NCBI GenBank assembly: GCA_048940645.1
Contig: JBHLOI010000035.1
Coordinates: 1 to 38,330 of the forward strand
Length of the DNA stretch: 38,330 nucleotides
Reading direction: 5' to 3'
From: Promethearchaeota archaeon
GTDB taxonomy: Archaea > Asgardarchaeota > Lokiarchaeia > Sigyniarchaeales > SOKP01
The stretch's first letter is position 1; the number at the start of each line of letters is the position of its first letter. The position numbers and the translations under genes are program-made. The notes below the pieces were generated by a model, which was not told where the DNA came from, did no database searches, and saw only the letters and a list, made by a program, of their open reading frames with translations. Shown here one piece after another: positions 1 through 37,996 of the stretch.

Positions 1-477
1 GGTGGTCAAGGGGCTCCAACCACGCTTTATGGGGCGACTAGTAGCACAACTCCTTATAAGATGTTTGAAAATAGAAGTGATGGAGTAGAGTTAGCATTGG
101 CAGCAGGAGCTACATATGTAGCAAGAACTACAGTAGCCCATCCTAGAACTTATATAAAATATTTTCAAAAAGCATTGAACCATAAGGGTACATCTGTTAT
201 TGAGGTTATTACTCCTTGTGTTACGTACTTTGGTAGGAAAAATCTTGATAATTTAGGTGCAGAATATACTGGCTTAGAAGGCGAAAAAATGGATACGGGA
301 GGAAAAATGATTGATTGGATTAAAAGAAATACTGTTCGCATAAACCAAGCAAAATTCATGAGTGAAGAAGAACTACTTAATAAGTATATAATAGGTGAAT
401 TTAGATACCAACCAGATAAACCTGAGTATTCTGATGAGTATGCTAAAATACAAAGGATTGCCATGGAGGAAAAATAA
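1..477 (+). CDS. 2-oxoacid:ferredoxin oxidoreductase beta subunit (TPP-binding), 5'-truncated by window edge
   Basis: Frame is open from base 1 (GGQGAPTT..., matching the TGGQxSPTT motif). Also GATYVAR and IEVITPCVTYFG motifs; lies directly before a gamma subunit. Confidence 0.92.
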   Translation, partial: GGQGAPTTLYGATSSTTPYKMFENRSDGVELALAAGATYVARTTVAHPRTYIKYFQKALNHKGTSVIEVITPCVTYFGRKNLDNLGAEYTGLEGEKMDTGGKMIDWIKRNTVRINQAKFMSEEELLNKYIIGEFRYQPDKPEYSDEYAKIQRIAMEEK

Positions 478-479
478 AT

Positions 480-1079
480 ATGGCTCGATTTGAGGTACGT
501 ATTGCTGGTTATGGAGGACAAGGAGTAATTACATTGAGTAAGATGATTATTACTGCTAGTTCATTGTATGAAGGCTTAGCTGGGACACAAACAGAAGCCT
601 ATTCAGCCGCTGCTCGGGGAGGAAAATGTTGGGCAGAAGTTGTTGTTGACTTAGATAAAGATGTGGACCTTATTGATTATCCAAAAGCTCTTGAACCTTA
701 TGACTTTTTAATAATTCTTTCTGAGGAATCGGCTGCAGATGTTAAACAAAGTATGATAAAACAAGAATCTAATACAGGTTTTTTAATCTGGGATAATTCT
801 ACCATTCAAAAATTTAGAGCCGCTAAGAGAGTTGACAAATCTTTAGGCGTCCCAATTCAGAAAATGGCTGTCGAAAAATTTGGAAATATTGTATTTGGTA
901 ATTCTATTTTACTAGGTTTGTTTACCATTCTTTCGGGCATATTCTCTGAAGAATCTGCGCTTGAAACAATTAAAAAGTTCGTACCAAGTTCTACTTTGGA
1001 AAAAAATTTAGAAGCTTTTGAATTGGGCAAGCAAGAAGCTATAGAATTTCTTAAAAAATTGAAAGAGGATAATAATTAA
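480..1079 (+). CDS. 2-oxoacid:ferredoxin oxidoreductase gamma subunit
   Basis: EVRIAGYGGQGV, YSAAARGG, NSILLG and NLEAFELG motifs; 2 nt after the beta subunit stop. Confidence 0.92.
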   Translation: MARFEVRIAGYGGQGVITLSKMIITASSLYEGLAGTQTEAYSAAARGGKCWAEVVVDLDKDVDLIDYPKALEPYDFLIILSEESAADVKQSMIKQESNTGFLIWDNSTIQKFRAAKRVDKSLGVPIQKMAVEKFGNIVFGNSILLGLFTILSGIFSEESALETIKKFVPSSTLEKNLEAFELGKQEAIEFLKKLKEDNN

Positions 1080-1080
1080 A

Positions 1081-2898
1081 ATGTATATTGAAAAGGTTAA
1101 AAAGGGTTGGACTGAATTAGAAAATGAGATCATAAAAACAAACAAGTGTGTATATTGTGGAGCTTGTGCTGCTTTTTGTGCAAATATTAAATTTAATAGA
1201 GAGATGGAAATACCTATAGAAGATGGTTCATGCAAAGATATTAATACATGTAGAGATGGTTATGGATTATGTTATAACTTATGTCCTAAGACTGAAATTG
1301 ACAGAATTTCGTTAGCTTTATTGGATAAATGGGTGTTTGGAAAAAAACATGACAAAATCTTGGGGCATTATATTGGTATTTATTCAGTAAAATTAACAGA
1401 TAAGGCGAGAGAAATGGTTCCTAGTCGTGTTGGACCTTTAACTGGTTTATTATGGGTTGCAATGAAAAATGATTTGATTGATGCTTCTATTATTGCTGAT
1501 AAAGATGAAAATTTCAAACCTTTTCCTATGATTGCTAAAAATGAACAAGCTTTATTTAGAGGTGCTGGCTATAAGCCGAGTCAAAGTCCTACAATATCGC
1601 TTGTAGGAGAAGCTATTAATAAAGGGTTTAATGATATAGCTGTAGTTGGAACGCCTTGCCAAATTCAAGCATTAAGAAAGTTACAAAATCATCCTATTTT
1701 TGATTTTGAAGCATATGATTTAGTTTCTTTAGCAATTGGTACTTTCTGTTTTGGTACATTTCATAATCAACAATTGAGTGGGTTATTTATGGATTTAGAT
1801 ATTAGACCAGATCAAATTGAAACGATTGATTCTCATCAACAAAATTTTAAAATGAAAATTAAAACAAATTCAACAACTAAAGAAATTGCTTTTAATTGTC
1901 TTTATGAAAAAGCCATTAGAAACGCATGTTTTACATGTTCTGACTATACTGCATCATTTGCTGATATATCAGTAGGAAGGGTTGGTAGTGAGCAAGGATG
2001 GGACACTATCATAATTAGAACAGAACGGGGAAAACAAGTTTTCGATTTAGCCTTAGATCAAGGATTTATTGAGATAAAATCACTTGAAAAAGATGAGGAA
2101 GAATTAGTCCTTGATATAACAAGAAGCAAGGTAGAGATTGTAGAAATTGCTTCTATTGTTGAGCATTCTCCAGATATTAAGAGTTTTATTGTTAGAAATC
2201 AAAGAATTGCCAAGGCTTACCGTCCAGGAATGTTTGTAATGCTTTGGATTCCTGATGTTGATTTTTTTCCAATGTCTATCTCCAATGTTGAAGGAAACAT
2301 GCTTGAGATTACCGTTCAAAAGATTGGTGAAGGCACCACAAAATTATTTGAATTACAAAAAGGAGATCAAATAGGAATTCGAGGACCATATGGTAATACT
2401 TTTAACTATGAGGATGCAAATAAGATCTTGGTAGTTGGAGGAGGAATGGGTATAGCTGCTTTAACATCTTTAATTGAACCACTTAAGAAGAATAACAAAA
2501 ATGTTTTTGTTACTATCGGGGCGAAAGATGAAGTTTCGTTAATCTTCTATGAGAGGTTGATAAATCTAATTCCAAATACAATGTGTGCCACTGAGGATGG
2601 ATCTGTTGGAAGAAAATGTTTAGTAACTGATACTATTGAAGATGTTTTAAAGAAAGAAAATATCGACCTTATTTTAACATGTGGACCTGAAGTTATGATG
2701 AAACATGTCTTAGAAATTGCTGAAAATCATAAAATAGAGATACAAGCTAGTTTGGAAAGGAAAATGAAATGTGGGGTCGGTTTATGTGGTTCTTGTTGTA
2801 TTGGTATGAATAGTGACGTTACTGTATGTAAAGAAGGACCTATCTTTAATTCTACCCAATTGAAGAAATTTCCCCAGTTTGGTAGCTATATAAAATAG
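1081..2898 (+). CDS. Fusion: ferredoxin + FrhB/FdhB (F420 hydrogenase beta family) domain + PyrK/NfnA-like FAD/NAD-binding 2Fe-2S domain
   Basis: N-half: CVYCGACAAFC, GLCYNLCP, VGTPCQ, IGTFCFGTF, ACFTCSDYTASFADISVG. C-half: PMSIS, IRGPYG, VGGGMGIA, CGPEVM, ERKMKCGVGLCGSC...VCKEGPIF. Confidence 0.88.
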   Translation: MYIEKVKKGWTELENEIIKTNKCVYCGACAAFCANIKFNREMEIPIEDGSCKDINTCRDGYGLCYNLCPKTEIDRISLALLDKWVFGKKHDKILGHYIGIYSVKLTDKAREMVPSRVGPLTGLLWVAMKNDLIDASIIADKDENFKPFPMIAKNEQALFRGAGYKPSQSPTISLVGEAINKGFNDIAVVGTPCQIQALRKLQNHPIFDFEAYDLVSLAIGTFCFGTFHNQQLSGLFMDLDIRPDQIETIDSHQQNFKMKIKTNSTTKEIAFNCLYEKAIRNACFTCSDYTASFADISVGRVGSEQGWDTIIIRTERGKQVFDLALDQGFIEIKSLEKDEEELVLDITRSKVEIVEIASIVEHSPDIKSFIVRNQRIAKAYRPGMFVMLWIPDVDFFPMSISNVEGNMLEITVQKIGEGTTKLFELQKGDQIGIRGPYGNTFNYEDANKILVVGGGMGIAALTSLIEPLKKNNKNVFVTIGAKDEVSLIFYERLINLIPNTMCATEDGSVGRKCLVTDTIEDVLKKENIDLILTCGPEVMMKHVLEIAENHKIEIQASLERKMKCGVGLCGSCCIGMNSDVTVCKEGPIFNSTQLKKFPQFGSYIK

Positions 2899-2987
2899 TT
2901 TTTCTACATTTTTTTCTAGTTTTTTCTATATAAAATTCATATATTATATACTAAATCTTGAAAATAAAGATCTATTAATTCCATTTA

Positions 2988-3683
2988 ATGATAGATTCAA
3001 ATTCAATTAAGAAAGTAGTATTAAAATTTGGGGCAGATTTATGTGGCTTTGCTCCAATTGAAAGATTTAAAGAAGCACCTCAAGGATTTCATCCATGTGA
3101 TATCTATAGATCTTGTAAAGCAGTCATAGTATTTGCTATAAAAATGCCAACAGCATCCCTCTTCGCATCAAGTTGTATCCCATATACTCATATTCAGAAT
3201 TTAGTAATACAGGAAGTTGACCAATTAACATTAAAACTTATACGAGGCGTTGAAAAGATGGGAATTGGATGTGTTCCCATTCCTTCTGATGATCCTTATG
3301 AGTATTGGGAGCCCGAAAGATCATATGGTCGTGCTATATTATCATTAAAGCATGCTGCTTATCTTGCCGGCTTAGGAACATTAGGAAAAAACACACTTCT
3401 ACTTAACGATCAATATGGCAATATGGTTCAATTAGGAGCAATCTTAGTAAACGTTAATTTAAATGGAGATCCAATAGCAAACTATAATCTATGTGATTAT
3501 AATTGTCAGATTTGCCTGGAAAATTGCCCAAAAGAAGCATTAAATGGTATTACAGTTGATCAGAAATTATGTAGAGAATTATCAACATTTAAAACGGAGA
3601 AAGGGTATATACTTAAAAAATGTAATTTATGCCGCAAACTATGCCCAAGTGCCTTTGGGATAAACAAAAATAAATTAGAGTGA
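2988..3683 (+). CDS. QueG/reductive dehalogenase-like double-cluster Fe-S protein
   Basis: GADLCGFA, LKHAAYLAGLGTLGKNTLL, CDYNCQICLENCP and CNLCRKLCP motifs. Confidence 0.8.
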   Translation: MIDSNSIKKVVLKFGADLCGFAPIERFKEAPQGFHPCDIYRSCKAVIVFAIKMPTASLFASSCIPYTHIQNLVIQEVDQLTLKLIRGVEKMGIGCVPIPSDDPYEYWEPERSYGRAILSLKHAAYLAGLGTLGKNTLLLNDQYGNMVQLGAILVNVNLNGDPIANYNLCDYNCQICLENCPKEALNGITVDQKLCRELSTFKTEKGYILKKCNLCRKLCPSAFGINKNKLE

Positions 3684-3763: not shown

Positions 3764-4117
3764 ATGAGTAAAATAATAGCATATTGCGGTCTAAATTGTT
3801 CAGATTGCCCAGCATATATAGCGACTCAAAAAAATGATACAAATGAGTTAGAAAAAATTGCTAAGAAGTGGTCTAATGAAAGGATGCAATTCCATGCCAA
3901 AGATATCCTATGTGATGGATGCTTCTCTGATGGTAGGATTTTTCAAGGGTGTCATGAATGTGATATTAGAACCTGTGCTCGTAAAAAAGGATTAAAAAGT
4001 TGCGCTTATTGTGAAGATTATCCATGTGAGCTTTTAAGTATTGCTTTTGGAAAAAGCGTTGACCCTTCGGCTAAAGAAAGGTTAGATGAAATAAAGAAAA
4101 ATATTGAGCTTCCATAA
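3764..4117 (+). CDS. DUF3795-family Cys-rich protein
   Basis: AYCGLNCSDC...CDGC...CDIRTCA...CAYCEDYPC pattern. Confidence 0.85.
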   Translation: MSKIIAYCGLNCSDCPAYIATQKNDTNELEKIAKKWSNERMQFHAKDILCDGCFSDGRIFQGCHECDIRTCARKKGLKSCAYCEDYPCELLSIAFGKSVDPSAKERLDEIKKNIELP

Positions 4118-4171: not shown

Positions 4172-5122
4172 GTGAAAAATCATAATTTAAAGAAGGGGAT
4201 AATTTACGGATTAATAGCAGTGTTTTTAATAGGAATGCAACCTGTTATTGCAAATTCAAGACCCTCAATTATAGATCCATACATATTTGCGGCAATTACC
4301 GCCTTAATTGAAGCTTTGATTTTTTTTCCAATCTTCCTGTTGGAGATACGAAGATTAAACAATAGTAGTAAAAATGATCCATCAGAAGAGAATAGAATTA
4401 ACTCTCTATTAAATGGATGGAAAAAAAAGAAGAATATTAAGCTGTTAATTGTAATTGCATTAGTTTTTAGCATTGTTCCTATTTTATTATACATTGGTTA
4501 TGAGCTCGCAGGAGCAATTAATAGTTCATTAGCCCTGAAAAGTGAAATAATATTTGCTCTTTTATTTGGATATTTAATTTTAAAGGAGGAAAGAATTTCC
4601 AAAATTCAAATCTTTTTTTGTTTTTTATTGTTTATTGGTTTGGTTATTGCAATTACTGAAGGTTCATTCAATTTACTTGAATTTAATATAGGTGTTGTCA
4701 CATTACTAATTAGTGTAGCATTATTCACATTGGTGCATGCATTCACTAAATCTGCTTTTGATCGCAATGAATTATTTCCAACTCAAGTCGTATTTATCCG
4801 CAATTTATGTAGTGGAATAATCTTAACGCTAGTTTATTTAGTTATTTTCCCTAAAGATAATTTCTTATGGTTGCTAGATTTTAATAATTTCATATTTTTC
4901 ATGTTAATGGGTTTAGATTATGGATTTTCTTTGTTTTTTTGGTATAAAACAATTTCATACATTCAAATTGGAAAAGCAGGAATAATTAATTCCTTAACCC
5001 CCGTTGTTTCTGCATTTTTTTCTTTTATTTTTCTTGGTGAAATTTTTACTATTTTTCATTTGATTGGAACAGTAATTATAATCATATCGATTTTTATGAT
5101 TGTCAGAGAAAAGAGCAAATAG
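4172..5122 (+). CDS. EamA/DMT family transporter (paralog 1)
   Basis: About 10 hydrophobic segments, two-repeat layout, ILKEERI and PVVSAFFSFIFLGEIFT motifs; GTG start. Confidence 0.88.
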   Translation: MKNHNLKKGIIYGLIAVFLIGMQPVIANSRPSIIDPYIFAAITALIEALIFFPIFLLEIRRLNNSSKNDPSEENRINSLLNGWKKKKNIKLLIVIALVFSIVPILLYIGYELAGAINSSLALKSEIIFALLFGYLILKEERISKIQIFFCFLLFIGLVIAITEGSFNLLEFNIGVVTLLISVALFTLVHAFTKSAFDRNELFPTQVVFIRNLCSGIILTLVYLVIFPKDNFLWLLDFNNFIFFMLMGLDYGFSLFFWYKTISYIQIGKAGIINSLTPVVSAFFSFIFLGEIFTIFHLIGTVIIIISIFMIVREKSK

Positions 5123-5175
5123 TTATATCTAAAACTATAATTGTTTAAATATCGGTACTAATTCATTTTAATATC

Positions 5176-6117
5176 TTGGTTAAATTAAATTACATTAAAG
5201 GTATTTTGTTTGGAATAGGTTCTGCAATTTTAATCGGTATTCAACCAATTATTGTAATCTCACTCCCATCTGAAATCGATGCATATTTATTTGCTACAAT
5301 GACAGTATTTTATGAAACCATTATATTCCTACCTTTATTCTTTTTAGAAAGAAGACATCTTAATTTAACTTTAAAACAAGACCCATCTAAACTAAATGAA
5401 ATAAATATCTTAAAAAATGGATGGAAAAAAAATAAATATTTTTTGATATATATCGGAATTAATTTTGCCATTGCTCAAATATTATTATATTTAGCATATC
5501 AACTTTCTGGAGCAATAAATGCTTCACTAGCGCAAAAGACGACTATTATTTTTGGCTTATTATTTGGTTTTTTAATTAATCATGAAAAAATATCTCTCAC
5601 GCAAATTGTATTCTCTATTATCTTATTTTTTGGACTAACTTTAGCTGTTACTCAAGGAAATTTTAATATTATTGAATTTAATGTTGGTGTTTTAATAATG
5701 CTTTTGACAGCTGCAATATGGATGCTTGCTCATACATTTACAAAACCAATCTTAGAGAGGAAGGAGCTCAGTTCAATTCAATTGGTATTTATAAGAAACT
5801 TTTTAAATTCTATTATTTTGATCTCAACCTATTTCATTTTTTTCCCAATTCAAAATATAAGATTTATTTTTGACCCAACATATCAATTTTTTTTCATTAT
5901 TATGGCTTTTGCTTATGGTTTTGATTTATTTTTCTGGTATAAAGCTATATCTTATATAAATGTTTCAACTGCTACGATAATTATCGCCCCTTCACCGATT
6001 ATTACAGCACTATTTGCTACTTTATTTCTAGGTGAAAAATTTACTATTTTTCATCTTTTCGGTACTATAATTATCATAATTTCAATTCTAGTTATAGTAA
6101 AAGAAAAAGGGGAATGA
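5176..6117 (+). CDS. EamA/DMT family transporter (paralog 2)
   Basis: Same architecture; GAINASL, NHEKIS and PIITALFATLFLGEKFT motifs; TTG start. Confidence 0.88.
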   Translation: MVKLNYIKGILFGIGSAILIGIQPIIVISLPSEIDAYLFATMTVFYETIIFLPLFFLERRHLNLTLKQDPSKLNEINILKNGWKKNKYFLIYIGINFAIAQILLYLAYQLSGAINASLAQKTTIIFGLLFGFLINHEKISLTQIVFSIILFFGLTLAVTQGNFNIIEFNVGVLIMLLTAAIWMLAHTFTKPILERKELSSIQLVFIRNFLNSIILISTYFIFFPIQNIRFIFDPTYQFFFIIMAFAYGFDLFFWYKAISYINVSTATIIIAPSPIITALFATLFLGEKFTIFHLFGTIIIIISILVIVKEKGE

Positions 6118-6179
6118 TATACTTCAATAAATTTTAACTTCTAAACATTTTTAATATTTAATGAATTTAGGTAAATATC

Positions 6180-7130
6180 TTGAGCAATAATCTAAAAAAA
6201 GGGCTTATTTTTGGAATTTTGGGTAACATCTTGGTAGGTTTTCAGCCGATAGTAGCAAATTCACGCCCAGAATCTATTGATGCTTACATATTTGCTGCTA
6301 TGACATGTATAGTAGAAGCAGCGATATTTATTCCATTAATGTTAATAGAATTCAAACTAAATCGCTCAAAAGCAAGAAAGAGTAATATATTAATTAATAA
6401 TCATGATTCTATTCTAAAGAATTGGAAAAAAAATTTGAAAGTTTTTCTATTTATAGGATTACTATTCGGTATTAACCAACTTTTATTTTTTATTGGCTAT
6501 AAATTAGCAGGTGCGATAAATGGAGCATTAACCCAAAAAACAACTGTGTTTTTTGGATTGATTTTTGGTTATTTAATACTAAAAGAGAAAATAACTAGAG
6601 CCCAAGTTTTATTTTCTATTATTCTATTTTTCGGTTTAGTAATTGCTATTACCCAATTTTCTTTTAATTTAGAAAATATCAACGTTGATATTATTTTAGG
6701 TGTTTTAGCATTATTACTTATTACATGTCTATGGATGTTAGGCCATACTATAACAAAACCAATCTTTTCTAGAAATGAGGCTACACCGACGCAGATGGTA
6801 TTTATAAGAAATATTCTGAGTGGTTCCATCTTATTTTCAACTTATTTCATATTTTTCCCTTTACAAAATTTAAGTATTTTCTTAGATCCGATTAATAATT
6901 TCTATTTTTTCGCTATGGGGGCAGTTTATAGCCTGGGATTATTCTGTTGGTACAAAACACTTTCGTATTTGGATGTTTCAAAAGCTACAATATTGCTTTC
7001 ACCGACTCCAATTGTTACAGCAATATTTGCTACGTTTCTCCTTGATGAAATTTTTACCATTTTTCATATTATTGGCACAATAATAATTATAATATCTATA
7101 ATTCTAATTATGAGATTAAAAAGTAATTAA
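6180..7130 (+). CDS. EamA/DMT family transporter (paralog 3)
   Basis: Same architecture; GAINGAL, ILKEKIT and PIVTAIFATFLLDEIFT motifs; TTG start. Confidence 0.88.
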   Translation: MSNNLKKGLIFGILGNILVGFQPIVANSRPESIDAYIFAAMTCIVEAAIFIPLMLIEFKLNRSKARKSNILINNHDSILKNWKKNLKVFLFIGLLFGINQLLFFIGYKLAGAINGALTQKTTVFFGLIFGYLILKEKITRAQVLFSIILFFGLVIAITQFSFNLENINVDIILGVLALLLITCLWMLGHTITKPIFSRNEATPTQMVFIRNILSGSILFSTYFIFFPLQNLSIFLDPINNFYFFAMGAVYSLGLFCWYKTLSYLDVSKATILLSPTPIVTAIFATFLLDEIFTIFHIIGTIIIIISIILIMRLKSN

Positions 7131-7176: not shown

Positions 7177-7842
7177 GTGAAATATACTTCAATATTTGAT
7201 GTTATAGGCCATATAATGGTAGGTCCAAGTTCAAGCCATACGGCGGGAGCGTGTCAAATTGCATATGTTTCCCAACTATTATATGGAAAAAAATTTGAGA
7301 AGGTAAAGATAGGGCTTCACGGTTCATTTGCTGAGACTTATCGTGGTCATGGAACCGATATCGCAATATTAGGGGGATTATTGGGATTTAAACCCGAAGA
7401 TGAGAGATTAAAAAACGCAATTGAAATTGCTGAAAAAAAGAGTCTTAAATATTCATTTGAACTTGTGGATTTAGGAGCAGAATATCACCCAAATTCAGTT
7501 AGCATAGAAATGAGTAATGGATCAGATAATATGACTGTTATTGGCTCTTCGATAGGAGGAGGTAATATAATAATCAAAGAAGTAAATGGATTAGAGGGAG
7601 GTTTTGGGGGGGAACCTAATACTTTAGTAATTTTGAATCATGATAAAATAGGAGCGCTTGTTAATATTGCTAATACTCTTCAAAAATTCAAATTAAATGT
7701 TGGATCTATGAAAATATCCAGAGACCTAAAAAAGAAAGTAGCTCTAACTTGGCTGGAAGCAGATTCTGCGATTCCAGAAGATTTAATCAATGCCTTAAAA
7801 GAGCATAAAGAAATATTATGGGTGAGAATTATTAATGTTTGA
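7177..7842 (+). CDS. sdaAB: L-serine dehydratase, Fe-S dependent, beta subunit (C-terminal ACT domain)
   Basis: SIFDVIGHIMVGPSSSHTAGA, GSFAETYRGHGTD, HPNS and SIGGG motifs. Confidence 0.95.
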   Translation: MKYTSIFDVIGHIMVGPSSSHTAGACQIAYVSQLLYGKKFEKVKIGLHGSFAETYRGHGTDIAILGGLLGFKPEDERLKNAIEIAEKKSLKYSFELVDLGAEYHPNSVSIEMSNGSDNMTVIGSSIGGGNIIIKEVNGLEGGFGGEPNTLVILNHDKIGALVNIANTLQKFKLNVGSMKISRDLKKKVALTWLEADSAIPEDLINALKEHKEILWVRIINV

Positions 7843-8704
7843 GTCAATTTCACAATTACTTAATGATTCTGAAATTAAGGGAATTGCACTTCACGATTTA
7901 ATTATAGAAGATGAATCTGAATATCAAAATACTCCTAAACAAATTATTAATGAACGTTTGCATAGATCATTAACTATTATGAAGCAGTCCTTAGATAAAG
8001 CACTTACAACTGATATTGAATTGCCCATTAAGGAAGCAAACCATCAAGCACAAAGAATGCTTTCGTCACCAATATTTTTTGGAAACCATATGAAAGAAGC
8101 TATTGCTTGGGCAATGGCTATTAGTGAATATAATAGCGGAATGGGCCTAATTGTCGCAGCTCCTACAGCAGGGGCTGCAGGAGTTTTGCCAGCTGTCCTT
8201 TTTAAAGCTAAAGAGATTTTAAAAAAATCCGAGGGGGATGTAGTTAATGCTTTAATTGTTGCAGCTGCAATTGGTGCTATAATTGGAAATCGTGCTATGT
8301 TATCTGGAAGTGAAGGTGGATGTCAGGCCGAAGTAGGAGTTGCATCTGCAATGGCAACCGCAGCTATAACGTATATGGCGGAAGGTTCAGCAGACCAAAT
8401 AAGTAATGCGATTGCATTAAATTTGAAGAATATATTAGGGCTTGTATGCGATCCCGTTGCTGGATTAGTTATATCACCTTGTATTAAACGAAATGCAATT
8501 GGAGTTGTTAATGCCTTCTTGGCTGCTGAAATGGCATTATCAGGGGTTACATCGATTATACCTGCAGATGAGATAGTCGATGCAATGATGAAAGTAGGTC
8601 GAAAACTTCCATATGAATTAAAGGAAACAGGATTAGGTGGAATTGCCGCAACAAAAACAGGAAAAAGAATAAAGAAAAGTATTTTTTCCGATTCTCTCAG
8701 ATAG
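7835..8704 (+). CDS. sdaAA: L-serine dehydratase, Fe-S dependent, alpha subunit
   Basis: IVAAPTAGAAGVLP, SGSEGGCQAEVG, LGLVCDPVAGLV, PCIKRN and LKETGLGGIA motifs; 8-nt overlap with the beta subunit. Confidence 0.95.
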   Translation: MFESISQLLNDSEIKGIALHDLIIEDESEYQNTPKQIINERLHRSLTIMKQSLDKALTTDIELPIKEANHQAQRMLSSPIFFGNHMKEAIAWAMAISEYNSGMGLIVAAPTAGAAGVLPAVLFKAKEILKKSEGDVVNALIVAAAIGAIIGNRAMLSGSEGGCQAEVGVASAMATAAITYMAEGSADQISNAIALNLKNILGLVCDPVAGLVISPCIKRNAIGVVNAFLAAEMALSGVTSIIPADEIVDAMMKVGRKLPYELKETGLGGIAATKTGKRIKKSIFSDSLR

Positions 8705-16720: not shown

Positions 16721-17515
16721 ATGGTTTTAGTAGGCGATTGGGGCTTTCAAAACCGCTTTAATAGAATTATTAAGCCTAAATCTGGACGTTGCGTTATGTT
16801 AGCAATAGATCATGGATATTTTGGGAATATTCCAGGTCAATTAAAATGCTTTACTGATATGCAGCCATTATTTAAGTATGCTGATGCCCTTATGTTAACT
16901 AGAGGAATGTTAAGAAATTGTGTACCTTCTGAAATAGACGTTCCAGTTGTATTAAGAGTTTCTGCTGGTGCTAGTATGCTTAAAGAACTTTCTAATGAAG
17001 AAATTAATGTTGCTATTGATGATGCGATAAGACTAAATGTTTCAGCAATTACTTGCTCAATCTTCGTTGGAGGGGAGTATGAGAAACAATCATTAATGAA
17101 TTTATCGAAATTAGTAAACTGGGGGCAAGAATATGGAATTCCTACCTTAGCCGTCACAGCAGTTGGACGTGAAATGGTAAGGGATGCACGATATCTAGGA
17201 ATGGCAAGTAGAATGGCAGCAGAAATGGGTGCAACCTTCGTGAAGACTTATTATTGTGAAAACTTTGAAGAGGTCACAAGTATCTGCCCGGCGCCAATTG
17301 TTATAGCTGGTGGTAAAAAAATTGAAGAACGAGAGGCTCTTCAGATGTCTAAAAATGCAGTTGATAAAGGAGCAGTAGGAGTGGATATGGGAAGAAATAT
17401 TTTTCAATCAGATAGCCCATTAGGTATGATTAAAGCAGTAAGAGCAATTGTCCATGAAAAAGCTTCGGTAGATGAAGCATTTGAAATTTATAAAAGCGGT
17501 CCCTTAGGACTATGA
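16721..17515 (+). CDS. lsrF: LsrF-like class I aldolase/thiolase (DhnA family)
   Basis: DWGFQNRFNRII, MLAIDHGYF, LTRG, AAEMGATFVKTYY, IVIAGGKK and GVDMGRNIFQS motifs. Confidence 0.85.
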   Translation: MVLVGDWGFQNRFNRIIKPKSGRCVMLAIDHGYFGNIPGQLKCFTDMQPLFKYADALMLTRGMLRNCVPSEIDVPVVLRVSAGASMLKELSNEEINVAIDDAIRLNVSAITCSIFVGGEYEKQSLMNLSKLVNWGQEYGIPTLAVTAVGREMVRDARYLGMASRMAAEMGATFVKTYYCENFEEVTSICPAPIVIAGGKKIEEREALQMSKNAVDKGAVGVDMGRNIFQSDSPLGMIKAVRAIVHEKASVDEAFEIYKSGPLGL

Positions 17516-17648: not shown

Positions 17649-19127
17649 GTGAAGATATTTAAAATAGCACTTATTAATCCAGGACCCGGAGATATTTTAG
17701 AAAAGGGTAGACTTCTAGCCAATGTAGATTACTTTTATCCTCCATTAGGTATCTGCTATTTAAGTGCTATTTTGAAGAAGGAAAACTATGACGTTGAAAT
17801 TATCGACCAAGCTGCAAAAGGTTTTAGTTTAGAACAAATTGTTAAATGGATAAAAAAGAAGGATCCCGATTTTTTAGGTTTTTCTACTTTAACAGCCTCC
17901 GGGTCAGGGATTAGTGCTGCAATAACCGCAAAAGAGGTGAAAAAGTGGAATCCTAATATTAAAATAATATTTGGAAATCGCCATGCAACAGTTAATGATT
18001 ATCGAATCTTAAACAAATATCCCCAGGTTGATATTTGTGTAAGAGATGAGGGAGAATATACCATTTTAGAATTAATTAAAGCATTTGAAAGAAATCTCCC
18101 TTTGAAAGATATTAAGGGAATAACCTATAGAAATAATGGAAATATTTTAAGAAATGAGAAAAGGGAACTGATAAAGGATCTTAATGCATTGCCATTCCCT
18201 GATAGAAAATCCTTAAAGATCGAATATACAGGGAACCTTGGTAATTTAGATTTAGTAGCAAAAGGTTTTACTTCGATAGTTTCCTCTCGTGGATGCCCTT
18301 ACCATTGCACTTTTTGTTATGGAAAAAGGTCTGTTGGGTTTAGGACTCGCTCTGTAGAAAATATAATTGAAGAAATTCTTTATTTGGAGAGTGAGGGCTA
18401 TAAATTTATAAATTTCGTAGATGATAATTTTACATTTTCAAAGAACAGAGTACTTAAGCTTTGTCAATCAATGCGAAAAAACAAGATTGATATGAATTGG
18501 ATGTGTCAAGGAAGGGTTAATCAAGAATCCACTGAAGTATTAAGTGAAATGCGTCGAGTTAATTGTAGAATTATATGTTATGGTATAGAAAGTGCGAATC
18601 AGAGAATTCTTGATTATTATAAAAAAGGAATTACTCCTGCACAGTCAATATTAGCAGTAAAAAAGGCAAGAAAGTCAAGAATTCCCTTAGTAATAGGTTC
18701 CTTTATAGTTGGAGCACCTGGTGAAACTTATAGGGAAATCTATAACACTTTGAAATTTGCTCAAAGATTAAAAATTGATTTCCCTGTTTTTAATCTTCTT
18801 GGAACAATGCCTGGAACTGACATTTGGGATGAATTAGTGGAAAAAAACATTCTAGATGAGGAAAAATATTGGGAAGATGGAGTTCATATTCCAGATATCG
18901 ATCCTAATGGGATTCCAACCGAAGAAATTTCAAATTTAATTCTGGAAATGTTTAGACAGTTTTTAAGAGACCCCAAATATATTTTAAAAGAGGCTTATAG
19001 AACTATTTCGAGTTTATATCGATTATTTGCCACTTTTAGTTTTATTGCTAATAATATAAATAACTTCAGGGATTTTCATGGTGTTCGATCCTTTTGGAAT
19101 CCGGATAAAGTTTTAGAGAGAAACTGA
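17649..19127 (+). CDS. Cobalamin-binding radical SAM protein
   Basis: PPLGICYLSA B12-domain start, SRGCPYHCTFC (CxxxCxxC), FVDDNF and GIESAN motifs. Confidence 0.92.
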   Translation: MKIFKIALINPGPGDILEKGRLLANVDYFYPPLGICYLSAILKKENYDVEIIDQAAKGFSLEQIVKWIKKKDPDFLGFSTLTASGSGISAAITAKEVKKWNPNIKIIFGNRHATVNDYRILNKYPQVDICVRDEGEYTILELIKAFERNLPLKDIKGITYRNNGNILRNEKRELIKDLNALPFPDRKSLKIEYTGNLGNLDLVAKGFTSIVSSRGCPYHCTFCYGKRSVGFRTRSVENIIEEILYLESEGYKFINFVDDNFTFSKNRVLKLCQSMRKNKIDMNWMCQGRVNQESTEVLSEMRRVNCRIICYGIESANQRILDYYKKGITPAQSILAVKKARKSRIPLVIGSFIVGAPGETYREIYNTLKFAQRLKIDFPVFNLLGTMPGTDIWDELVEKNILDEEKYWEDGVHIPDIDPNGIPTEEISNLILEMFRQFLRDPKYILKEAYRTISSLYRLFATFSFIANNINNFRDFHGVRSFWNPDKVLERN

Positions 19128-34809: not shown

Positions 34810-36660
34810 TTAAATTCCTAATTCTTCTAATTTTTCTTTTGTTGGCCGTCCAGTTTCCCAGTCCCAACCCCTTATTTCATAGTACTTTCTAAGGTTTTCG
34901 TCTAATTCAAGTTTATTTCCAGCAGTACCACCATATGGAATAGGGTTTGTATTAATTTTTGTTAAGTGATCATCGTCTCTTGTAACTCCTAGTTTACAAG
35001 AAATTAACCTTTTAACACTATTTGCTCTCTCTCCTGCTTTCAACATCCTTCTTTTGTTTCCCAGGCTTTTAAAGCCAGTAGCCGCTTGAAATATTTTTGT
35101 AAGATGAGGAATATTTACGTATGGTTTATTACAAATGACTGCAGAATCATATAAGTTAGCTAAATCTTGCATATTAATAACATCTTTTTCTCTACCGTTT
35201 ATATCAAATCTATCTGCTTTTTTTATACCTGTAATATTAACACCATTGCCATCAATATGATAAAACTCTCCTTTTTCATGGCTCGCACCGCAGCAACATG
35301 TCATATAAGAAAGTGCTTGACCATTATAAGCTCTGGGGTCATGCATAGGCATTTCCAATCCTTTAACATGGGCTGCTAGTTCAGGATCCACTTCAAGCTC
35401 CTCTGCCATGATTTTCACTCCTTTAGATAGCAATTTACCTATACCTTCTGTCTTGGAAATTTTCTCTACGAGTTTTACGGTTAAATCACCATTTCCCCAT
35501 TTAATATCTTCTAAGTTGATATCCGAAAGATATTTTTTGATATTATCAATAGCAATTTTATTTTCAACAAGATATATTAAGAAAGCAATTGATACACCCG
35601 CCGAAATAGTGTCAATTCCATAAATATTACATAGATGATTCGCTTCTAAAATGGGTTCCCATTCAAAATTACCGCATAATGGACCAAATGACGCAAGTGT
35701 TTCATATTCAGGACCATCAATTTCTAACTCATTCCCATCTTTTTCATATATCGTAGTTCTTCCGCACCCTATAGTACATCCCGCACAATAGTAATTTAAA
35801 ACAGGAAAATTCTCCTTTAACGATCTTCCTGTAAGTTTTTCCGCGATAAATTCAGATTGTGTAAAGTAATACGCAGGAACATCTCCAATTACCATTCCCA
35901 TATCAGTATAACATGCCGTTCCATAATGGGACTGGAATTGCACAGCAAAAGAGGCTTCTATCCCTGCTCTAGCTGATGTAACCGATTTTTTCATCTGCTC
36001 AAAATCATCATATTCAATTTTGTTAGTACCCCTTATTGCAATAGCTTTTAGTTTCCTATGACCCATCAGTGCTCCAAATCCGCATCTACCTGCGGCTCTT
36101 CCTTCATCATTGATAATACAGGCATACTTTACTAAATTTTCCCCACCCTTTCCGATACATGCGACCCGAATCTTCTCATCCCTGAGCTCATTTGTTATAG
36201 CATCAATTGTTTCATATGTGCCTTTTCCCCAAATATTCTCAGCACTCTTAAATTCTATAGTTCCATTATCTATAATCAAATATATAGGTTTTTCTGAATC
36301 TCCAGTTATTATGATCGCATCAAATCCACTTTTTCTTAAGGCAATTGGAAATTGACCTCCTGAAGTTGATTCTCCCCACAATTTAGTAAGTGGGGAAATT
36401 CCAGCAACTGAATATCTTCCGCTTGAAGGCGTTATTGAGCCGGTAAGCGGTCCAGTAGCGAAGATTAATGGATTGATACTGGCATAAGGATTTTTTTTCA
36501 ATATTTCATAATCTTCATCAGCTAATAGATCGTAAGTAAGTTTTGCGGATAAACCAACACCACCAACAAAATTTTCAGCGTCTATGGGATTAAGTTCCTT
36601 TATTTCAACTTTTTTGGAATCTAAATCAATATAGACAATTTTACCATTATATCCTAACAT
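34810..36660 (-). CDS. aor: Aldehyde:ferredoxin oxidoreductase (tungstopterin family)
   Basis: ATGPLTG, SPLT, AAGRCGFGALMG, CAGCTIGC, GPEYET, GIDTIS, HVKGLEMPMHDPR and YYEIRGW motifs. Confidence 0.93.
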   Translation of the reverse strand: MLGYNGKIVYIDLDSKKVEIKELNPIDAENFVGGVGLSAKLTYDLLADEDYEILKKNPYASINPLIFATGPLTGSITPSSGRYSVAGISPLTKLWGESTSGGQFPIALRKSGFDAIIITGDSEKPIYLIIDNGTIEFKSAENIWGKGTYETIDAITNELRDEKIRVACIGKGGENLVKYACIINDEGRAAGRCGFGALMGHRKLKAIAIRGTNKIEYDDFEQMKKSVTSARAGIEASFAVQFQSHYGTACYTDMGMVIGDVPAYYFTQSEFIAEKLTGRSLKENFPVLNYYCAGCTIGCGRTTIYEKDGNELEIDGPEYETLASFGPLCGNFEWEPILEANHLCNIYGIDTISAGVSIAFLIYLVENKIAIDNIKKYLSDINLEDIKWGNGDLTVKLVEKISKTEGIGKLLSKGVKIMAEELEVDPELAAHVKGLEMPMHDPRAYNGQALSYMTCCCGASHEKGEFYHIDGNGVNITGIKKADRFDINGREKDVINMQDLANLYDSAVICNKPYVNIPHLTKIFQAATGFKSLGNKRRMLKAGERANSVKRLISCKLGVTRDDDHLTKINTNPIPYGGTAGNKLELDENLRKYYEIRGWDWETGRPTKEKLEELGI

Positions 36661-36682
36661 TTCTCTCCTCTGATTTTATTTA

Positions 36683-37996
36683 TCACATATAATATAATTC
36701 CATTAAATCGTCTATTTTATTTTCATATATGATTTCAAATATTTTACTAATCTGAGGCTTGTCTAAATATCGTGAAGAAAAAAGAGTATCAACATCATTA
36801 AAAGCATTATTAATCAACTGACTTATTTTATTCATATATTCTTCCCGAGAGATCTTTGGTTTCTCAAGTTGATAAATAGAAAGTGGACATTGAACTTCTT
36901 TCAGAAACTCTTGAATTTTTCTCAATAATTCATTTAAAATTCGATCATTTGCTTTCTTATTTACTTCAACTCCGAAAATTTTTGCTATATCTAGAAATCT
37001 ATCCGTTACTTTTGCTTGGTATGCAACAGAAGCGCATATGAATAATCCTACCGCTACACCATGATGGACATGGAAAATACCTCCAAAAGAATGACCTAAA
37101 CTATGTTCTATACCTGCAGAACCTGTATTTATAAATCCCAATCCAGCAATATAAGCGGCCAATTGCATTTTTTCTCGGGCTTCGATATCATTTCTCCTTT
37201 TTACTGCCCGAGGCAGAAATTCTAAGATCATTTCTATTGCTTTAATGTTATGCATATCCGTATAAGGAGTACTTCCATATAAAACATATGATCCAATTGA
37301 ATGCGCCAAAGCATCTATCCCAGTACCCATTGTTAAATAAGGTGGCATGGTTTTAGTAAATTCAGGGTTTAAAACTACTATATCAGGACAGAATTCATAT
37401 AGCGGAACAGCTACTTTTTTTGGAGGATCCCTTCTTGTATCTGTGACCATCGCATTAAAGGAGGCCTCTGCTCCTGTTCCACTTGTTGTAGGTATAGCAG
37501 CTAAAAAGTGAACTTTTTTGCGTAAACCCAAGTATGAAGGCATCATCATCGTATTAACATTCACTAACGGCTGTTCATAATAAAGGAGAATTATTTTTGC
37601 CATATCTATAGCAGAACCACCCCCTATCGCTATAATTGTTTTAGGGTCATATTCCTTGCATATCTCAACAGCTTGCATTACCGATTTTAAAGGCACTTCA
37701 GGAATTACATTATCAAAAATACGAGTATCAATCGCTCTCAGGCTTTTTAATTGATTTGCAACTTTTTCACCTAATCTTCTCAGTTCTGGATCTACGATAA
37801 TTAAAACTCGCTTCTCATCAGGATTTAAAAAAGCACCTAATAAAATTATAAAATCATTTAGACTATTCGTTCCAGTAAATGTATACTTAGGAGACACAAT
37901 AGCACAGTGATATCCACGCATTGCATTACTAGATGCCTTTAAATATAAATTCCTGAAGTTCGGATCTTCATACCAACTAATCTCTCTTTTTGACAT
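36683..37996 (-). CDS. Iron-containing alcohol dehydrogenase
   Basis: GGGSAID, PTTSGTGAE, DALAH, HSLGH and HHG motifs; GAGGT Shine-Dalgarno. Confidence 0.92.
   Translation of the reverse strand: MSKREISWYEDPNFRNLYLKASSNAMRGYHCAIVSPKYTFTGTNSLNDFIILLGAFLNPDEKRVLIIVDPELRRLGEKVANQLKSLRAIDTRIFDNVIPEVPLKSVMQAVEICKEYDPKTIIAIGGGSAIDMAKIILLYYEQPLVNVNTMMMPSYLGLRKKVHFLAAIPTTSGTGAEASFNAMVTDTRRDPPKKVAVPLYEFCPDIVVLNPEFTKTMPPYLTMGTGIDALAHSIGSYVLYGSTPYTDMHNIKAIEMILEFLPRAVKRRNDIEAREKMQLAAYIAGLGFINTGSAGIEHSLGHSFGGIFHVHHGVAVGLFICASVAYQAKVTDRFLDIAKIFGVEVNKKANDRILNELLRKIQEFLKEVQCPLSIYQLEKPKISREEYMNKISQLINNAFNDVDTLFSSRYLDKPQISKIFEIIYENKIDDLMELYYM

Follow-up and report, generated by a model that had tools for sequence, protein, structure and literature searches.

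A ferredoxin-FrhB-PyrK fusion protein encoded within a 2-oxoacid:ferredoxin oxidoreductase operon of Promethearchaeota as a candidate electron-output subunit to F420 and NAD(P)

Where does a 2-oxoacid:ferredoxin oxidoreductase (OFOR) deliver its electrons when its operon ends in a gene that joins an F420-reductase module to an NAD-linked flavoprotein? The locus raising this question lies at the start of a 38,330-nt stretch of Promethearchaeota DNA (hereafter the window), which is an entire contig (C59) of a low-GC genome of 3.83 Mb, assembled in 126 contigs and approximately 90% complete. Three co-directional genes open the window, the first of which enters from the contig edge, while the third is a single 605-aa gene uninterrupted by any internal stop (1081-2898, plus strand). 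Its product begins with a ferredoxin domain for two [4Fe-4S] clusters, continues with an F420-reductase domain of the FrhB/FpoF type, and ends in a complete FAD/NAD/[2Fe-2S] domain of the PyrK type. Electrons from the thiamine pyrophosphate (TPP) site of an OFOR normally exit via the two [4Fe-4S] clusters of its delta subunit to free ferredoxin. The interpretation we favor, and regard as somewhat probable, is that the fusion protein serves as a fifth, electron-output subunit, which would render this OFOR a ferredoxin-independent 2-oxoacid:F420/NAD(P)+ oxidoreductase. An earlier examination of the letters alone (the sequence-only reading) had recognized the same ferredoxin-type Cys cluster, FrhB domain, and PyrK-type domain in this one reading frame and had suggested a hub connecting F420, ferredoxin, and NAD(P). 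The domain content is confirmed by the profile matches and invariant cysteines described below, and the idea of an F420/NAD(P) redox hub, though unproven, fits the anatomy of the protein.

The window itself contains only part of the OFOR. The remainder is found on a second contig of the same genome (C38), which carries delta, alpha, and the N-terminal part of beta, and the reverse complement of its end is identical to window positions 1-77, an exact overlap of 77 nt; the operon is therefore complete and contigs C38 and C59 belong joined. Its features are as follows, with C38 coordinates given as those of locus L061:

L061:1710-2012, minus strand: OFOR delta on C38, a two-[4Fe-4S] ferredoxin (Fer4)
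L061:521-1726, minus strand: OFOR alpha on C38 (POR_N/PFOR_II)
L061:3-521, minus strand: N-terminal part of OFOR beta on C38, which completes window 1..477
1..477, plus strand: C-terminal 158 aa of OFOR beta, TPP-binding (Pfam TPP_enzyme_C; NCBIfam KorB/PorB family), 81% identical to residues 144-301 of the beta subunit at locus L023
480..1079, plus strand: OFOR gamma, 199 aa (Pfam POR, 88 bits; best NCBIfam match NF006323, 2-oxoacid:ferredoxin oxidoreductase gamma)
1081..1350, plus strand: fusion aa 1-90, ferredoxin domain with two [4Fe-4S] motifs (8 invariant Cys), which aligns with the zeta ferredoxin domain of 8RIU (residues 1-83) and is the presumed docking and electron-entry end
1351..2115, plus strand: fusion aa 91-345, FrhB/FpoF-type F420-reductase domain with one [4Fe-4S] and a presumed FAD (Pfam, PDB, Foldseek TMt 0.71-0.81)
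2116..2898, plus strand: fusion aa 346-605 and the stop codon, PyrK-type FAD/NAD domain with an all-Cys [2Fe-2S] (NF000796, PDB, Foldseek, alignment to standalone PyrK)
2899..2987, no strand: intergenic spacer, as read from the sequence

With a Fer4 delta, a POR_N/PFOR_II alpha, a TPP_enzyme_C beta, and a POR gamma in the order D-A-B-C, the first four genes make up a four-subunit OFOR of the Kor/Oor type. As the sequence-only reading had noted, a single base separates the gamma stop codon (TAA, 1077-1079) from the fusion ATG at 1081, and a GAGG lies 11-17 nt upstream of that ATG. Following the fusion stop, the spacer contains oligo-T runs and AT-rich, TATA-like stretches, and the genes beyond it vary among orthologous loci; it is probably both the end of the operon and the promoter of the next gene.

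Within the fusion, every Pfam match reaches or exceeds its cut-off, including both FrhB halves, FrhB_FdhB_N at aa 115-174 (29.2 bits; gathering cut-off 22) and FrhB_FdhB_C at 185-337 (129.4 bits; cut-off 23.3), as well as NAD_binding_1 at 452-543 and DHODB_Fe-S_bind at 559-594. The NCBIfam PyrK equivalog NF000796 is likewise exceeded over aa 351-603 (260.7 bits; cut-off 224). All 16 presumed cluster ligands are invariant in 32 aligned sequences that are 39-89% identical to the window fusion: C23/26/29/33 and C51/57/64/68 in the ferredoxin domain, C193, C223, C283, and C286 of the FrhB-core [4Fe-4S], and C564, C569, C572, and C583 of the [2Fe-2S] cluster. The same is true of GGGxG at 453-457. 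The FrhB-core cysteines fall within PCQ, FC, and CxxC motifs that line up with those of 8RIU_B, 8RJA_E, and FrhB. In an AlphaFold2 model (mean pLDDT 78.5, pTM 0.77), a short helix, and no long linker, connects the two halves. The closest PDB relative of the N-half is 8RIU chain B (E value 3e-54, residues 11-360 against 10-347), followed by 8RJA chain E (2e-42), FrhB proper (approximately 1e-34), and then Fsr, with the ferredoxin-dependent HCAR (5DQR) a far weaker match at 1.6e-14. Foldseek comparisons of the model returned TMt values of 0.72 for 8RIU_B, 0.71 for 8RJA_E, and 0.78-0.81 for FrhB.

The two leading matches provide the most informative precedent. The structures 8RIU and 8RJA come from the ethane oxidizer Ca. 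Ethanoperedens (Ethanoperedens thermophilum) and show its F420-reducing CO dehydrogenase (CODH) and formylmethanofuran dehydrogenase (Fwd). Each enzyme has, fixed to its catalytic core, a subunit that combines a ferredoxin domain of two clusters with an FrhB-type [4Fe-4S]/FAD domain, and measurements from 2024 demonstrated coupled reduction of F420 for both (PMC11493965). These subunits, CODH zeta and FwdI, are the best sequence matches for fusion aa 8-360. Judged by sequence, the fusion has the same make-up as these add-on subunits, namely a two-[4Fe-4S] ferredoxin domain followed by an FrhB core and a conserved gene cluster with the catalytic subunits of a normally ferredoxin-dependent, CO2-releasing oxidoreductase, to which CODH zeta and FwdI are demonstrably bound. 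The fusion differs in having a 2-oxoacid oxidoreductase as its partner and an Asgard archaeon rather than an alkane oxidizer as its host, and the short C-terminal dimerization tail of zeta is replaced by an entire PyrK FAD/NAD/[2Fe-2S] domain. A single-chain parallel is Fsr (7NP8, 7NPA), which also combines an Fd domain, an FrhB-type F420H2 oxidase, and a C-terminal redox module within approximately 600-620 aa, and whose wire runs from FAD to the core cluster, the two Fd-domain clusters, and the next module; unlike the fusion, its C-terminal module is a siroheme sulfite reductase and it has no link to an OFOR (PMC10229431). For the system described here, we infer that the fusion binds the OFOR and that electrons would pass from the delta clusters into the ferredoxin domain of the fusion, then to the FrhB-core [4Fe-4S] and the FrhB FAD, where F420 would be reduced. 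The same wire would lead to the PyrK-type [2Fe-2S] and a second FAD for the reduction of NAD(P)+. Because both flavin ends would share one wire, equilibration between F420H2 and NAD(P)H should also be possible.

How strictly is the fusion tied to its OFOR? A word-indexed search identified more than 120 clusters with the Pfam architecture of the fusion at 68-92% identity, all of them 599-626 aa in length, and more than 130 protein clusters of approximately 600 aa share the architecture overall. Most are labelled as metagenome-assembled genomes (MAGs) of Promethearchaeota or Lokiarchaeota and are named ‘dihydroorotate dehydrogenase electron transfer subunit’. When 1.84 billion cluster representatives were searched exhaustively with HMMER, full-length fusions came up in just two clusters, the window family and P0127 (42% identity), and all other matches were PyrK or FpoF-like proteins on their own or fusions of PyrK with PyrD. 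The P0127 clade, which bears Sigynarchaeota/Lokiarchaeia labels, and an intermediate clade that is 51-55% identical to P0127 together contribute about 17 more clusters, and beyond the set at 68-92% identity the fusion extends to a clade that is 39-43% identical to the window protein. Conservation of the fused architecture across so many clusters and genomes rules out a misassembly or frameshift at the domain junction, a concern that the sequence-only reading had itself raised. That reading had also looked to Asgard genomes at large, and here the distribution proved narrower: in a sample of 300 genomes from the phylum, the complete fusion gene occurs solely in the window’s own family (42 of 68 genomes) and other families yield only PyrK matches of approximately 275 aa, with the databases adding Sigynarchaeota- and Lokiarchaeia-labelled MAGs.

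At every locus examined, the OFOR accompanies the fusion. Gamma directly precedes the fusion in all 20 fetched family genomes, and delta-alpha-beta-gamma is complete in each of the 14 fetched loci that reach far enough upstream. Three loci (L037, L039, and L040) end at a contig edge upstream, with L040 retaining most of alpha, and L042, L054, and L040 are set apart from the 14 complete loci. The same five genes in the same order are present at the database loci L023, L025, and L027, and distant clades (P0127, P0287 on a 3.7-Mb contig, and P0283) keep the five-gene operon as well. The spacing between gamma and the fusion ranges from -4 (an overlap) to +13 nt. Across approximately 30 loci spanning 42-92% identity, the fusion is always within the OFOR operon and never apart from it. 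Furthermore, in five fusion-less genomes of the family that are 98-100% complete, the orthologous OFOR alpha is absent too, the closest match, in one genome, being a paralog of 41% identity. The five genes behave as one heritable unit, which bears out the coupling to an OFOR operon that had been claimed from the window alone. At least six other OFOR-type alpha genes are present in the window genome, none of them paired with a fusion.

Judging from its gene content, the window genome both makes and uses F420. It encodes CofH (469 bits; cut-off 374) with a CofG-like neighbor, CofD (311 bits; cut-off 257), and two CofE proteins, so that a lack of F420 synthesis, which the sequence-only reading had regarded as fatal to its proposal, does not apply; Mtd (366 bits) and two Mer-like proteins below cut-off are encoded as well. 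The F420:NADP+ oxidoreductase Fno/NpdG was not found in the window genome (best match 31 bits; cut-off 150), and another link between F420 and NAD(P) is therefore needed. Seven PyrK-like genes and 14 FrhB-family matches are present, several of the latter fused with or adjacent to flavoproteins of the NAD(P) type. These include three adjacent, unfused PyrK-like/FrhB-like pairs on C45 (7783-9782), C115 (2696-4742), and C118 (1-2440), whose [2Fe-2S] motif is of the Asp-containing NfnA/SudB type on C115 and C118 and all-Cys on C45. Of 70 family genomes, 58 have a detected cofH, as do 25 of the 31 fusion carriers common to both samples. Five carriers without a cofH match at the first threshold all encode two cofE genes for building the F420 tail. 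As for the origin of the N-half, its nearest standalone relatives are FpoF/FqoF-like proteins, and no unfused FrhB beside an OFOR was found as an ancestor, the three nearest standalone FrhB-like proteins adjoining complex-I-type or unrelated genes.

The C-half is PyrK-derived. Its PDB matches include NfnA (4YLF_A, 3.6e-31) and PyrK (5KSW_B/1EP3_B), and Foldseek gives PyrK 5KSW_B a TMt of 0.85, with NfnA and the sulfhydrogenase gamma subunit at approximately 0.8. Its best relatives are standalone PyrK proteins (43-47% identity) whose genes immediately follow pyrD in four further Asgard families and with which it shares the PMS(I/L)S, GGGxG, and all-Cys [2Fe-2S] motifs, whereas their last ~15 residues are missing from the fusion. 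The PyrK equivalog match and the name used by the source databases might suggest that the fusion is simply the electron-transfer subunit of dihydroorotate dehydrogenase B. We find this hardly credible and reject it, since pyrD is not adjacent to the fusion at any orthologous locus examined and the window genome encodes a canonical pyrD with its own 294-aa pyrK immediately downstream on a separate contig (C86). An arrangement of orthologs beside pyrD, which the sequence-only reading had held out as evidence against its proposal, is thus not observed. The missing C-terminal tail argues in the same direction, and the name takes no account of the 350-aa N-half, which places the PyrK-type domain behind an FrhB module. 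For several hundred database entries, ‘dihydroorotate dehydrogenase electron transfer subunit’ is accordingly a misannotation. A more elaborate use of the C-half would be Nfn-like confurcation or bifurcation, with the FrhB FAD as a bifurcating center in place of NfnB, positioned between the OFOR-wired [4Fe-4S] chain and the NAD branch formed by the PyrK [2Fe-2S]/FAD. Electrons from a 2-oxoacid together with NADH might then reduce two F420, or, in reverse, F420H2 might power the synthesis of a 2-oxoacid by reductive carboxylation of an acyl-CoA, with no free ferredoxin involved, a scheme that we consider improbable. The inventory of flavin, [2Fe-2S], flavin, and [4Fe-4S] chain does mirror NfnAB, in which an NAD-binding FAD/[2Fe-2S] subunit likewise works with another flavin and with a chain of [4Fe-4S] clusters that leads to electrons at the ferredoxin level, and the C-half matches the NfnA structures 4YLF_A and 5JCA_S (NfnAB: 4YLF, 5JCA). 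By established redox potentials, in vivo F420H2 resembles NADPH, which makes the energetics as feasible as those of Nfn. However, the [2Fe-2S] cluster of NfnA is Asp-ligated, whereas the fusion motif KCGVGLCGSCC is of the all-Cys PyrK type and has Cys at the first ligand position, where the NfnA/SudB-like paralogs in its own genome (C115 and C118; IDGTGMCGGC) have Asp. The second flavoprotein is of the FrhB rather than the GltD/NfnB type, the whole is fused and linked to an OFOR, and no GltD/NfnB-type partner was found within the fusion, in the scanned window ORFs, or among the genes called at orthologous loci. Moreover, the closest relatives of the C-half are the pyrD-adjacent, non-bifurcating PyrK proteins, and the FAD of known FrhB modules ends the wire instead of standing midway along it (PMC10229431, PMC11493965). 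The bifurcation option of the sequence-only reading is consequently weakened, with its cofactor inventory still in its favor. If it were true, the system would constitute an F420-dependent, substrate-wired Nfn analog in the archaeal lineage closest to eukaryotes.

Two further alternatives bear upon the partners of the fusion. It could be a soluble, stand-alone enzyme that is merely co-expressed with the OFOR and fed by free ferredoxin, acting either as a ferredoxin:F420/NAD(P)+ oxidoreductase or as a head-to-tail dimeric F420H2:NAD(P)+ transhydrogenase in the manner of Fsr. We judge this unlikely, but it is the alternative to be taken most seriously; co-transcription could suit a soluble partner equally well. 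The closest standalone relatives are FpoF/FqoF-like, and a role as ferredoxin:F420 oxidoreductase has been put forward for soluble FpoF/FqoF (PMC10667645). Fsr forms a head-to-tail dimer in which each C-terminal module receives its electrons from the Fd domain of the partner chain (PMC10229431); the absence of a detectable Fno would also suit such an enzyme. What this leaves unaccounted for is the unbroken residence of the fusion gene within the OFOR operon, the joint loss of fusion and OFOR, and a start codon that overlaps or abuts the gamma stop in a subunit-like fashion. The same pool of ferredoxin would also be supplied by at least six other OFOR systems of the genome, none of which carries the fusion. 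Conversely, the fusion could be a true subunit that is blind to F420, its FrhB-fold half being only an Fe-S/flavin conduit within a plain 2-oxoacid:NAD(P)+ oxidoreductase, functionally similar to the pyruvate:NADP+ oxidoreductase of Euglena or the phenylglyoxylate:NAD+ oxidoreductase of Azoarcus. This we hold to be quite doubtful, and slightly more so than the Nfn-like scheme. In distant clades the operon precedes mevalonate genes, including HMG-CoA reductase, which are users of acetyl-CoA and NAD(P)H, as such an enzyme might lead one to expect. However, PyrK alone could take electrons from the Fe-S clusters, and there would then be no evident reason to retain a complete FrhB core that binds FAD and is highly conserved. 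Proven F420 reductases (3e-54) also surpass HCAR (1.6e-14) by a wide margin as relatives of the N-half, and all tested carriers keep the genes for building the F420 tail. Certainly, several observations speak for this alternative, weigh against the favored role of the fusion as an electron-output subunit, or do both. The fusion falls below the equivalog cut-offs of FrhB (TIGR03289, 156 bits; cut-off 331.5) and FpoF (NF040616, 96 bits; cut-off 475), and by sequence its N-half is a member of the FrhB/FdhB/FpoF superfamily that is neither FrhB nor FpoF proper. Not every FrhB-fold enzyme uses F420, given that HCAR (5DQR), albeit a far weaker match, employs ferredoxin instead. The F420 site of FrhB modules has been described only as a ‘positively charged cleft’ without a residue-level pocket (PMC10229431), which means that F420 binding would not be readable from the sequence of the fusion. 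Upon re-searching the five carriers without an initial cofH match, four (90-99% complete) again gave none and G186 gave a partial match below cut-off. Other difficulties concern the operon itself. In G135, a 646-aa ORF (L054:1530-3470) with a DUF4379 treble-clef zinc finger and DUF6614 stands in place of alpha and delta directly before beta-gamma-fusion, which may be an insertion or rearrangement, and in G138 beta does not adjoin gamma. Finally, F420 and NAD are nearly isopotential, which leaves the presence of two exits without an obvious benefit.

Which 2-oxoacid would feed the fifth-subunit system is answered differently by homology and by gene context. OFOR alpha scores 394.8 bits on NF006412, just under the cut-off of 411, and delta is OorD-like. 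The best PDB relatives of alpha are 1YD7, 8YS5, and 6N2N, with the four-subunit pyruvate:ferredoxin oxidoreductase (PFOR) 9BT4 reaching only 3.6e-19, and homology would thus place alpha and beta with the Kor/Oor/‘2-keto acid’ enzymes of the 2-oxoglutarate/2-ketoacid clade. The D-A-B-C gene order is also found in a PFOR of Acetivibrio thermocellus (PMC13768988). Gene context points instead to the pyruvate/acetyl-CoA node, so that the substrate appears Kor/Oor-like by homology and pyruvate-like by neighborhood. Divergent from the operon are LutA-like (CCG domains) and LutB-like (LUD and Fer4) genes, both on C38 (L061:2121-4173) and at five other loci (L027, L043, L049, L050, and L052), which may link lactate oxidation, and hence pyruvate formation, to the operon. 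L-serine dehydratase beta and alpha chains are encoded 4 kb downstream (window 7177-8704, plus strand), a pair not conserved at other loci, and upstream of the operon C38 carries a D-serine-dehydratase-like gene, RidA, and a galactarate/altronate-type dehydratase (L061:5735-7214, minus strand). By their sequence assignments, these genes form a local concentration of 2-oxoacid-forming enzymes. In the distant clades with Sigynarchaeota/Lokiarchaeia labels (L034:7875-15253, L062:9387-10187, and the P0283 locus), HMG-CoA synthase follows the operon on the same strand, and at two such loci the archaeal mevalonate cluster comes after it (UbiD-like, AcnX, HMG-CoA reductase, and mevalonate kinase).

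Other genes of the window complete its description. Immediately beyond the spacer are a 231-aa QueG/reductive-dehalogenase-like Fe-S protein (2988-3683, plus strand) and a DUF3795 protein (3764-4117, plus strand), both of which are kept only in the closest relatives (L037 and L039). These are followed by three tandem EamA-family transporter paralogs (4172-7130, plus strand), and an EamA gene comes after the operon in 18 of the 25 loci compared. A DeoC/LacD-family aldolase (16721-17515) adjoins a 492-aa B12-binding radical SAM protein (17649-19127, plus strand), and toward the other end of the window an aldehyde:ferredoxin oxidoreductase (AFOR_N/AFOR_C) adjoins an iron-containing alcohol dehydrogenase (34810-37996, minus strand). 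In agreement with the sequence-only reading, a scan of the larger ORFs throughout the 38 kb of the window, which left aside about ten ORFs of 90-154 aa, detected neither pyrD nor nfnB/gltD nor any hydrogenase gene.

The sequence-only reading had further considered the system to be new. Our literature searches, which covered FrhB in Asgard archaea and Lokiarchaeia, OFORs of five subunits, and the electron-transfer subunit of dihydroorotate dehydrogenase, turned up no account of an FrhB-PyrK fusion with an OFOR, in keeping with its remark that no characterized enzyme has this architecture, and a November 2026 review of PFOR diversity, in which characterized archaeal enzymes have two or four subunits, leaves F420 unmentioned (PMC13768988). 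The novelty resides in the fused PyrK module and the OFOR partner, whereas the principle of an F420-reductase add-on is already known from CODH and Fwd (PMC11493965), and FrhB-PFOR gene clusters have been noted in ANME-1. There, ‘FrhB6’ paralogs are associated with PFOR genes and have been read as a dedicated route to F420 (PMC9012536), a prediction from another lineage in which no PyrK fusion is described, and which we liken to the present system by gene association rather than by sequence. Elsewhere, OFOR-type enzymes do not always rely upon ferredoxin. The pyruvate:NADP+ oxidoreductase of Euglena and Cryptosporidium and the phenylglyoxylate:NAD+ oxidoreductase PadEFGHI of Azoarcus, which are cited in PMC13768988 and PMC5109826, have a built-in flavoprotein and use NAD(P)+ rather than ferredoxin as acceptor; their added modules, CPR-like in the case of pyruvate:NADP+ oxidoreductase, are unrelated to those of the fusion and include no F420 module. 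Homology of the fusion to PadH was not seen among the NCBIfam matches listed (the best 25 of 30).

If the fusion is indeed the electron-output subunit of its OFOR, the system would extend the principle of F420-reductase add-on subunits from CODH and Fwd to the OFOR family and would add a third terminal to it. The electron routes by which Asgard archaea connect the oxidation of amino acids and organic acids to sinks such as H2, formate, the Wood-Ljungdahl pathway, and biosynthesis are central to syntrophy-based models of eukaryogenesis, and so far they have mostly been derived from gene lists. The operon would provide a defined and testable route past the ferredoxin pool that loads F420 and/or NAD(P) directly. 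In that case, the redox bookkeeping of its carriers would change, as would their predicted energy yield, because the oxidation of 2-oxoacids to F420 or NAD discards approximately 150-200 mV.

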